Virus record (IMG/VR): IMGVR_UViG_2880361019_000006
Strand: one strand, 5' to 3'
DNA from: a virus
Taxonomy: Duplodnaviria; Heunggongvirae; Uroviricota; Caudoviricetes
Length of the DNA stretch: 36,382 nucleotides
Each line of letters opens with the position of its first letter. The stretch's first letter is position 1. This document shows, piece after piece, positions 19,501 to 22,500 of this stretch. Position numbers: made by a program.

Positions 19501-22500
19501 GGTGATGAGCGATATCCCGGCACTGTCAGATTTGATCACCAGTATGGTGGCCAGTGGCTATGACTACCGGCGCGACGATGATGCGGGCCTGTGGAGTTCA
19601 GCCGATCTGACTTATGTCATTACCTATGAAATGTGAGGACGATATGCCTGTACCAAATCCAGTAATGCCGGTGAAAGGTGCCGGGACCACACTGTGGGTT
19701 TATAAGGGAAACGGTGATCCTTATGCGAACCCGCTTTCAGACGTTGACTGGTCGCGTCTGGCTAAAGTTAAAGACCTGACGCCCGGCGAACTGACCGCTG
19801 AGTCCTATGACGACAGTTATCTCGATGATGAAGATGCGGACTGGACCGCGACCGGACAGGGGCAGAAGTCAGCCGGAGATACCAGCTTCACGCTGGCGTG
19901 GATGCCCGGAGAGCAGGGGCAGCAGGCGCTGCTGGCGTGGTTTAATGAAGGGGATGTCCGGGCCTATAAAATCCGCTTCCCGAACGGTACGGTTGATGTG
20001 TTCCGTGGCTGGGTCAGCAGTATCGGTAAGGCAGTAACGGCGAAGGAAGCGATCACCCGCACGGTGAAGGTCACCAATGTGGGCTGTCCGTCGATGGCAG
20101 AAGATCGCAGCACGGTGACGGCGGCAACCGGCATGACGGTGACACCCGCCAGTGCTTCCGTAGTGAAAGGGCAGAGCACCACGCTGACCGTGGCATTTCA
20201 GCCGGAAGGTGCAACCGACAAGAGCTTCCGGGCGGTGTCTGCGGATAAAACAAAAGCCACCGTGTCGGTCAGTGGTATGACCATCACAGTGAAGGGCGTT
20301 GCTGCAGGTAAGGTCAACATTCCGGTTGTATCCGGTAATGGTGAGTTTGCTGCGGTTGCAGAAATCAACGTCACCGCCAGTTAATCCGGAGAGTCAGCGA
20401 TGTTTCTGAAAACCGAATCATTTGAACATAACGGCGTGACCGTCACGCTTTCTGAACTGTCAGCCCTGCAGCGCATTGAGCATCTCGCCCTGATGAAACG
20501 GCAGGCAGAACAGGCGGAGTCAGACAGCAACCGGACGTTTACTGTGGAAGATGTCATCAGAACCGGTGCTTTTGTGGTGGCGATGTCCCTGTGGCATAAC
20601 CATCCGAAGAAGACGCAGATGCCCTCCATGAATGAAGCCGTTAAACAGATTGAGCAGGAAGTGCTTACCACCTGGCCCACAGAGGCAATTTCTCAGGCTG
20701 AAAACGTGGTGTACCGGCTGTCCGGTATGTATGAATTTGTGGTGAATAATGCCCCTGAACAGACAGAGGACGCCGGGCCTGCAGAGCCTGTTTCTGCGGG
20801 AAAGTGTTCGACGGTGAGCTGAGTTTTGCCCTGAAACTGGCGCGTGAGATGGGGAGACCCGACTGGCGTGCCATGCTTGCCGGGATGTCATCCACGGAGT
20901 ATGCCGACTGGCACCGCTTTTACAGTACCCATTATTTTCATGATGTTCTTCTGGATATGCACTTTTCCGGGCTGACGTACACCGTGCTCAGCCTGTTTTT
21001 CAGCGATCCGGATATGCATCCGCTGGATTTCAGTCTGCTGAACCGGCGCGGGGCTGACGAAGAGCCTGAAGATGATGTGCTGATGCAGAAAGCGGCAGGG
21101 CTTGCCGGAGGTGTTCGTTTTGGTCCGGACGGGAATGAAGTTATCCCCGCTTCCCCGGACATGACGGAGGATGACGCAATGCTGATGACAGTATCAGAAG
21201 GGATCGCAGGAGGAGTCCGGTATGGCTGAACCGGCAGGCGATCTGGTCGTTGATTTAAGTCTGGATGCAGCCAGATTTGACGAGCAGATGGCCAGAATCA
21301 GGCGTCATTTTTCCGGTACGGAAAGTGATGCGAAAAAAACAGCGGCAGTTGTTGAGCAGTCGATGAACCGACAGGCGCTGGCTGCACAGAAAGCGGGTAT
21401 CTCTGTAGGGCAGTATAAAGCTGCCATGCGTATGCTGCCTGCGCAGTTCACCGACGTGGCCACGCAGCTTGCAGGGGGGCAGAACCCGTTTCTCATCCTG
21501 CTGCAACAGGGCGGTCAGGTAAAAGATTCCTTCGGTGGGTTGATCCCCATGTTCAGGGGGCTTGCCGGTGCAGTCACCCTGCCGATGGTGGGGCTCACTT
21601 CGCTGGCAGTTGCCACCGGAGCGCTGGCGTATGCCTAGTATCAGGGGTACTCAACCCTGTCCAGTTTCAATAAAACGCTGGTCCTTTCCGGTAATCAGGC
21701 AGGACTGACGGCAGATCGTATGCTGGTCCTGTCCAGAGCAGGGCAGGCGGCAGGGCTGACGTTTAACCAGACCAGCGAGTCACTGACGGCGCTGGTGAAT
21801 GCCGGTGTGCGTGGTGGTGAGCAGTTTGAGGCGATCAGCCAGAGTGTGGCGCGTTTCTCCTCTGCATCGGGCGTGGAGGTGGACAAGGTTGCTGAAGCCT
21901 TCGGGAAGCTGACCACAGACCCGACGTCGGGGCTGACAGCGATGGCGCGCCAGTTCCATAACGTGACAGCGGAGCAGATTGCGTATGTTGCTCAGTTGCA
22001 GCGTTCCGGCGATGAAGCCGGGGCATTGCAGGCGGCGAACGAGGCCGCAACGAAAGGGTTTGATGACCAGACCCGCCGCCTGAAAGATAACATGGGCACG
22101 CTGGAGACCTGGGCAGACAAGACAGCACGGGCATTTAAATCCATGTGGGATTCGGTGCTGGATATTGGTCGCCCGGACACTGCCCGGGAAATGCTGGAGA
22201 AAGCAGAAAAGGCTTTTGATGAAGCGGACAAGAAATGGCAGTGGTATCAGAGCCGGAGCCACCGGCGTGGTAAAACCTCAGCATTTCTTGCCAGTCTCCG
22301 TGGCGCATGGGAGGACAGGGCGAATGCGCAACTTGGTCTTTCAGCCGCCACATTGCAGGCAGATCTTGAAAAGGCCAGTGAGATGGCAGCAAAAGATCGT
22401 GCTGAGTCTGAGGCATCACGGCTGAAATATACCGAAGAGGCGCAGAAGGCTTACGAACGTCTGCAGACTCCGCTGGAGAAATATACCGCCCGTCAGGAAG

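Follow-up and report, generated by a model that had tools for sequence, protein, structure and literature searches.

The lambda-type tape measure gene H in a prophage of Escherichia albertii is interrupted by a single in-frame amber codon, and the locus raises the question whether this stop makes tail assembly dependent on a suppressor, reflects an error in the assembly, has a function of its own or is a mark of prophage decay. We addressed this question in the IMG/VR virus record IMGVR_UViG_2880361019_000006 (Caudoviricetes); the whole stretch of 36,382 nucleotides that was analysed is called the window here, and all positions refer to it unless another sequence is named. The TAG is very probably a real inactivating mutation in a prophage that is already defective. 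For the account as a whole, namely a genuine amber codon, a defective E. albertii prophage and an origin by deamination at a Dcm site, we estimate a probability of about 0.75.

A single amber codon interrupts an otherwise full-length gene H

The H frame opens with an ATG at 21222, which overlaps the 3′ end of gene T, and runs through 138 sense codons to a TAG at 21636-21638; a further 719 sense codons follow, up to a TGA at 23796-23798. With both stops counted, the frame has 859 codons and the TAG is its sole internal stop. Around it the window reads tat gcc TAG tat cag (21630-21644), preceded by gcg and followed by ggg (21627-21647). As a conserved frame of 2.6 kb is broken exactly once, chance is not at issue here.

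At codon 139 the lambda H protein has ...GALAYAWYQG... (given as ...GALAYAWYQGNST...). The nearest DNA relative, an allele of E. coli O55:H7, reads GCGCTGGCGTATGCCTGGTATCAGGGG where the window reads GCGCTGGCGTATGCCTAGTATCAGGGG, so that GCC TGG TAT stands against GCC TAG TAT. In an alignment with intact, full-length H proteins that are 87-93% identical, Trp occupied the codon-139 column in 131 of 131 relatives. A degenerate pattern with the TGG version of this codon gave at least 120 matches in IMG/VR; the TAG version gave none in IMG/VR and none in the GTDB species representatives. Because the relatives have TGG and the window has TAG, the lesion is a change of one base, Trp139 to amber, by a single G-to-A transition at 21637. 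The primary translation product of H is predicted to end after 138 of 858 residues. The preliminary description of this DNA had named the tryptophan of lambda, proposed the single G-to-A change and expected Trp in close relatives, and on all three points the alignments agree with it; its coordinates for the TAG, its codon count and its product of 138 amino acids were also correct.

Two ways of obtaining more of the protein were considered and rejected. Reinitiation at the ATG at 21720 is unlikely, as this codon has no well-spaced Shine-Dalgarno sequence (an AGGA lies about 15 nucleotides upstream), and the downstream open reading frame (ORF) of 692 amino acids is probably not expressed. Programmed readthrough or recoding at the TAG was discarded since the stop is not conserved, all the aligned relatives having Trp in its place.

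Both pieces of the interrupted frame match Pfam PF06791 (TMP_2), and the C-terminal piece also matches PF09718 (Tape_meas_lam_C). When the TAG is restored to a sense codon, the protein aligns over 100% of its length with annotated tape measure proteins, at 87-93% identity, and the best intact proteins in a collection of 5.8 billion sequences reach about 93% identity. Among 5426 complete E. coli genomes, the nearest H alleles are those of O55:H7 prophages, with 96% DNA identity. As in lambda, the gene follows the G/G-T chaperone genes and precedes M and L. Homology, domains and operon position are those of the lambda gpH family, and the uninterrupted frame alone is missing, owing to the TAG at codon 139. 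On sequence, domains and position, H of the window is a pseudogene member of this family. It shares with lambda gpH its place between G/T and M, both Pfam domains and nearly the same length (858 versus 853 residues); it differs from lambda in the amber codon and in a mosaic central part that is nearer to alleles of the E. coli O55:H7 type.

We also observed ten amino-acid states in H of the window that are absent from all 131 relatives, for example W90F, N143Y, R631N and G748D. These private residues may reflect either a divergent E. albertii lineage or a constraint that is starting to relax.

The window derives from a sequenced Escherichia albertii chromosome

Positions 11222-31638 of the window (20,417 bases) are 100% identical to CP034212.1, a chromosome of 4.92 Mb, in which the changed base at 21637 corresponds to 4,405,593. 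This is the sequence of E. albertii 2010C-3449, a stx-negative human isolate from 2010 (PMC10673567). The products of 138 and 692 amino acids are on record from two NCBI contigs, CP034212.1 and a second one of 20-50 kb, which may be an independent sequencing of the same strain. Neither piece of H has an NCBI protein accession, which would fit an annotation as pseudogene by the depositors.

The amber codon lies in a former Dcm site

The TAG falls within a former Dcm site (Table 1), and the base opposite the changed G is the second C of the bottom-strand CCAGG, the Dcm target. Such positions are scarce in H. There are 280 one-step nonsense routes in the gene, 89 of them by G:C to A:T, and only 4 of these 89 possible substitutions fall on a Dcm-target base; the amber mutation sits in one of only four CCWGG sites.

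To see how often this kind of change occurs elsewhere, a census of mutant alleles was made in the 5426 complete E. coli genomes. The probes were 53 nucleotides long, with the mutant base in the centre and NNN spacers; with a megablast word of 28 nucleotides, only mutant alleles were seeded, and all observed flanking haplotypes were included. Probes for TGG to TAG at the three Trp codons in Dcm context (139, 297 and 619) matched 2 genomes, both at codon 619. The same change at the other 9 Trp codons, in non-Dcm context, gave no match in these genomes, and neither did TGG to TGA at codons 139, 297 and 619, where the probes alter the adjacent G, a base that Dcm does not target. The two codon-619 ambers (ACC TGG to ACC TAG) lie in NZ_AP042570.1 (619604-622165) and NZ_CP035879.1 (1426462-1429011), two unrelated genomes from a Japanese bovine isolate and a Saudi human isolate, and the two alleles are 95.4% identical to each other. 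In both genes the amber is the sole stop, and both are annotated as pseudogenes with an 'internal stop'.

A degenerate search for codon-139 TAG returned two metagenome contigs, QZMC01000330.1 and ERZ1034701 NODE-2613, whose H alleles differ by 4-5% from that of the window and from one another. Over 300 nucleotides on each side, the three codon-139 TAG alleles differ from each other at 36-66 of 600 positions, and each has a TGG neighbour that is 0-6 of 600 positions away. Because the TAG alleles are far apart while each has a near-identical TGG neighbour, the ambers of the window and of the two contigs are three independent events. A separate, unbiased tally of the TGG-to-TAG events that were found without aiming at one site has all three of them at Dcm-context codons, which make up 3 of the 12 Trp codons (p ~0.016). 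Recurrence is seen, in small numbers, at codon 139 (three times) and at codon 619 (twice), with 0 in the controls. At a coverage of only ~3.7x, the base in contig ERZ1034701 NODE-2613 is called with less certainty.

In E. coli, CCWGG sites are known as hotspots of G:C to A:T change (PMC13250602, PMC3527292). The E. albertii type strain NBRC 107761, a strain other than 2010C-3449, has an intact dcm of 472 amino acids (96% identical to the E. coli query) together with an intact vsr. In the mechanism that we propose, the intact GCC TGG holds the Dcm site CCTGG, of which Dcm would methylate the second C on both strands. The bottom-strand 5-methylcytosine opposite the middle G of TGG would deaminate spontaneously and leave a T:G mismatch; once very-short-patch repair had missed this mismatch, replication would fix CCTAG, that is, TGG to TAG on the coding strand. 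We consider it likely that the H amber arose by such a deamination at the Dcm site. Several points weigh against this origin. Searches of more than 6,700 H copies in the complete E. coli genomes, of the GTDB representatives and of IMG/VR yielded no TAG at codon 139, and this codon would therefore be a modest hotspot. The census counts are small, with 3 events in all, and the metagenome search was aimed at codon 139 only, without a matched control. Furthermore, dcm was seen in the type strain of the species and not in 2010C-3449, and methylation of the site is putative.

The pattern resembles classical amber hotspots. Coulondre, Miller, Farabaugh and Gilbert reportedly described, in 1978, 5-methylcytosine amber hotspots at CCAGG/CCTGG in lacI, and Lieb is said to have worked on CCAGG ambers in lambda cI. 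As in those systems, TAG arises by a G:C to A:T transition that hits the second C of a Dcm site, and the same base recurs in independent lineages while matched non-Dcm sites show no events. The lacI and cI hotspots differ from the present case in that they come from laboratory forward-mutation assays, whereas we deal with natural standing variation in prophage pseudogenes, and with methylation that is putative here.

The prophage is defective independently of H

The integrase and excisionase genes at the left prophage end (Table 1) are followed by a short stretch matching lambda 29106-29361, and the xis/ea8.5 remnant ends at about 1992. From there to the post-Q region at about 5712, the interval is filled by an insertion sequence (IS) of the IS21 family and an IS1. 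The fragments at 1993-2134, 4730-4863 (the ~134 bp between the two IS elements) and 5632-5711 match neither lambda nor the O55:H7 prophage. Similarity to the O55:H7 reference prophage begins again only at the DUF3927 gene of the latter, downstream of its Q gene and tRNAs, and from this match onward the window has, in order, an esterase-like ORF, the lysis genes, a PerC homologue and cos. This layout leaves no physical space in the window for exo/bet/gam, N, cI/cro, O/P, the nin region, Q or pR′.

The late block is far better preserved. From cos and nu1 to L (10704-24822) it is colinear with lambda 1-14127, with about 96% identity over most of its length, from nu1 into H. When the lambda genes nu1 to L were mapped on the window, 15 of the 17 were intact and began and ended where expected, E and H being the two broken ones. 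At the site of the deletion in E, lambda has ...ggcaaagCGGTGTCCTATaagggg..., and the frame shift at about codon 238 leaves an ORF of 294 amino acids, compared to 341 in lambda. K, I, J, the side tail fibre gene and tfa are intact. The accessory gene lom is frameshifted; a relative reads GGGTGTGG at the G7 run, and the difference of 1 bp may be real slippage or a long-read homopolymer error. No tRNA genes were found in the window.

Because the region with the early and replication genes, Q and pR′ has been replaced by IS elements and E is frameshifted, the prophage is predicted to be non-viable regardless of H: it would not be inducible, would not replicate, would have no late transcription from its native promoter and would form no capsid. 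The H amber is one of at least three independent inactivating lesions. With int and xis present, the early region absent and both E and H inactivated, the element has the make-up of a defective lambdoid prophage.

Table 1. Features of the window, with positions, strands and remarks
Feature	Position	Strand	Remarks
Integrase (357 amino acids; 1-1074) and excisionase (72 amino acids; 1052-1270)	1-1270	-	Left prophage end; 76% DNA identity to lambda int-xis
IS21-family element (istA, 513 amino acids; istB, 249 amino acids)	2135-4729	+	Terminal inverted repeats at ~2135-2234 and 4656-4729
Complete IS1, 768 bp (insA/insB)	4864-5631	-	Directly before the post-Q late-region remnant (start ~5712)
ORF of 623 amino acids	6157-8028		DUF1737, SASA (sialate O-acetylesterase-like) and DUF6645; upstream of lysis genes
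PerC-family regulator homologue	9887-10201		Between Rz and cos
Late structural block, nu1 to L	10893-24822	+	Colinear with lambda 191-14127
Major capsid gene E, disabled	16837-17851	+	Compared with lambda, 11 bp (cggtgtcctat) deleted after 17548
Tail assembly chaperone genes G and T, G-T frameshift pair	20400-21229	+	Both intact; mapping to lambda
Lambda-type tape measure gene H, pseudogene	21222-23798	+	One internal stop, otherwise full length; homology
N-terminal H ORF, 138 amino acids	21222-21638	+	Pfam TMP_2; the truncated product that any translation of the region should yield
Former Dcm site	21634-21638		CCTAG in the window, CCTGG (CCWGG) in every intact relative
In-frame amber, codon 139 of H	21636-21638	+	TGG (Trp) in relatives; changed base 21637, G to A
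Downstream H ORF, 692 amino acids from first ATG	21720-23798	+	Pfam TMP_2 and Tape_meas_lam_C; same frame as the 138-amino-acid ORF
Arc/ribbon-helix-helix-like ORF	24839-25216	-	In the insert between L and K
P22 antirepressor-like ORF	25668-26444		In the insert between L and K
lom homologue, accessory gene, frameshifted	31349-31947	+	One base short in a G7 run near 31701
NleG-family type III effector gene	33716-34363	-	Pfam; downstream of tail fibre genes
ORF of 441 amino acids ending in ETRV	35057-36382	-	No Pfam or NCBIfam match; downstream of tail fibre genes

The preliminary description had concluded that tail assembly would be suppressor-dependent. This part of it does not stand, as it needs an otherwise functional phage and the window has lost the early region, Q and pR′ and has a frameshifted E. 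A suppressor tRNA would restore neither tails nor phage, because the prophage is defective independently of H. The comparison with laboratory mutants of lambda makes the difference clear. Campbell's sus (amber) mutants reportedly have a single amber in an otherwise intact gene, H included. A viable phage with a sus-H amber yields lysates without tails from su- hosts, and it grows on hosts with supE or supF. The window allele is alike in being a single amber in H of a lambda-type phage, with the same effect at the level of translation. It differs in that the rest of the phage is not viable, so that the allele is not conditional in practice, and in that it is natural and did not come from mutagenesis and selection. 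Of what defines a conditional-lethal amber, a single nonsense codon in an essential gene is present, and an otherwise complete phage is not.

Cargo genes and comparison with other defective prophages

Two ORFs on the minus strand lie downstream of the tail fibre genes (Table 1). One encodes an NleG-family effector, and the other, with the terminal ETRV, we take to be NleA/EspI-like. Between the tail genes L and K the window has an insert of 1.7 kb (24839-26444) that neither lambda nor the O55:H7 relative possesses.

Defective lambdoid prophages that carry type III effectors, such as the Sp prophages of strain Sakai, have reportedly been described by Asadulghani et al. in 2009 and Tobe et al. 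in 2006. The element in the window resembles the defective lambdoid prophages of enterohaemorrhagic E. coli, enteropathogenic E. coli and E. albertii in its IS insertions, deletions and point-inactivated morphogenesis genes, and also in keeping effector genes downstream of the tail fibre genes. Similar decay is found in the E. coli O55:H7 relative, where J is frameshifted and EspW has an internal stop. Unlike in the known defective lambdoid prophages, however, the head and tail block of the window is unusually close to lambda itself. The prophage in E. albertii 2010C-3449 is a specific, previously undescribed instance of this group.

Alternative explanations for the amber codon

If the TAG were a sequencing or assembly error, H would be intact in the strain, with TGG at codon 139. 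Only one base of a single long-read assembly is affected, and the same window has the 1-bp difference in the G7 run of lom, which could itself be a homopolymer error. However, long-read consensus errors are mostly indels, whereas the change at codon 139 is a substitution; both H products are also recorded from the second NCBI contig, though this may be of the same strain; the identical change arises independently in other sequences at the Dcm hotspot; and the deletion in E and the IS replacements are unambiguous lesions of the same prophage. We therefore regard an error as very unlikely. Even less weight is given to a conditional allele of the sus type, with tails or phage being made whenever the host has an amber suppressor tRNA. 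A lone amber in an otherwise intact frame of 858 codons is formally what Campbell's mutants are reported to have, and neither the chaperone genes G/T nor the tip genes M, L, K, I and J are damaged. Against this stand the missing tRNA in the window, the loss of Q, pR′ and the replication and immunity genes, and the frameshift in E, with which suppression of H alone could yield neither particles nor tails from the native operon. To our knowledge, moreover, amber suppressors are laboratory alleles and rare among natural isolates.

That the stop is functional, either through readthrough or recoding by design or as a selected truncation in which the hydrophobic N-terminal gpH fragment of 138 amino acids is active, would find some support in the amber at codon 139 of three independent alleles. 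Yet the stop is not conserved, with W in every aligned relative and at least 120 TGG alleles in IMG/VR, and no codon-139 TAG occurs in the 5426 E. coli genomes; the late operon of the window has also lost its promoter region. Recurrence extends to the Dcm codon 619, with no TGA at the Dcm codons and no event at non-Dcm Trp codons. This pattern of TAG and not TGA, and of Dcm and not non-Dcm codons, is what a hotspot predicts and what selection for truncation does not, and we find a functional stop scarcely credible. It is just as improbable that truncation at codon 139 is tolerated or favoured since the 138-residue fragment, with its long hydrophobic end, benefits the host, for instance by hindering the entry of DNA from superinfecting lambdoid phages, or that such alleles stay conditionally functional in natural Escherichia strains with amber suppressors. 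The alternative that deserves most attention accepts the mutation and denies the role of methylation: an ordinary G:C to A:T transition, from a replication error or the deamination of an unmethylated cytosine, could have coincided with a CCWGG. Among spontaneous transitions G:C to A:T is the most frequent, CCWGG sites give only a small share of such transitions genome-wide (PMC13250602), and the complete E. coli genomes lack a codon-139 TAG. On the other side, a Dcm-target base is involved in very few of the G:C to A:T nonsense routes in H (4/89), all three untargeted TGG-to-TAG events are on Dcm-context codons with the matched controls empty, and codon 139 was hit independently three times. 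An ordinary transition is in our view unlikely, and deamination at the Dcm site is preferred.

Timing and implications

For H compared with the O55 allele, the ratio of nonsynonymous to synonymous substitution rates (dN/dS) is 0.13; for most late genes compared with lambda it lies at 0.04-0.25. This mostly synonymous divergence points to purifying selection for most of the history of these genes, and the lesions would accordingly date from recent times; the H amber appears to be recent relative to the divergence of the H alleles. In the scenario that we propose, the late genes would no longer have been under selection, or would have been complemented by other prophages, and the amber allele would simply have persisted.

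The H amber is a case of ordinary prophage decay, probably with a textbook mutational origin, another one of a known kind, and it leaves the current understanding unchanged. For annotation, it means that H should be called a pseudogene and the prophage a defective, effector-carrying remnant rather than an inducible phage; before a lone in-frame stop is taken for a 'conditional' allele, the rest of the element needs to be checked. Beyond this locus, Dcm-site deamination appears to leave a visible, recurrent signature in natural prophage pseudogenes, here at codons 139 and 619 of lambda-family H, and in population genomic data this signature could serve as an internal marker for mutation driven by methylation.

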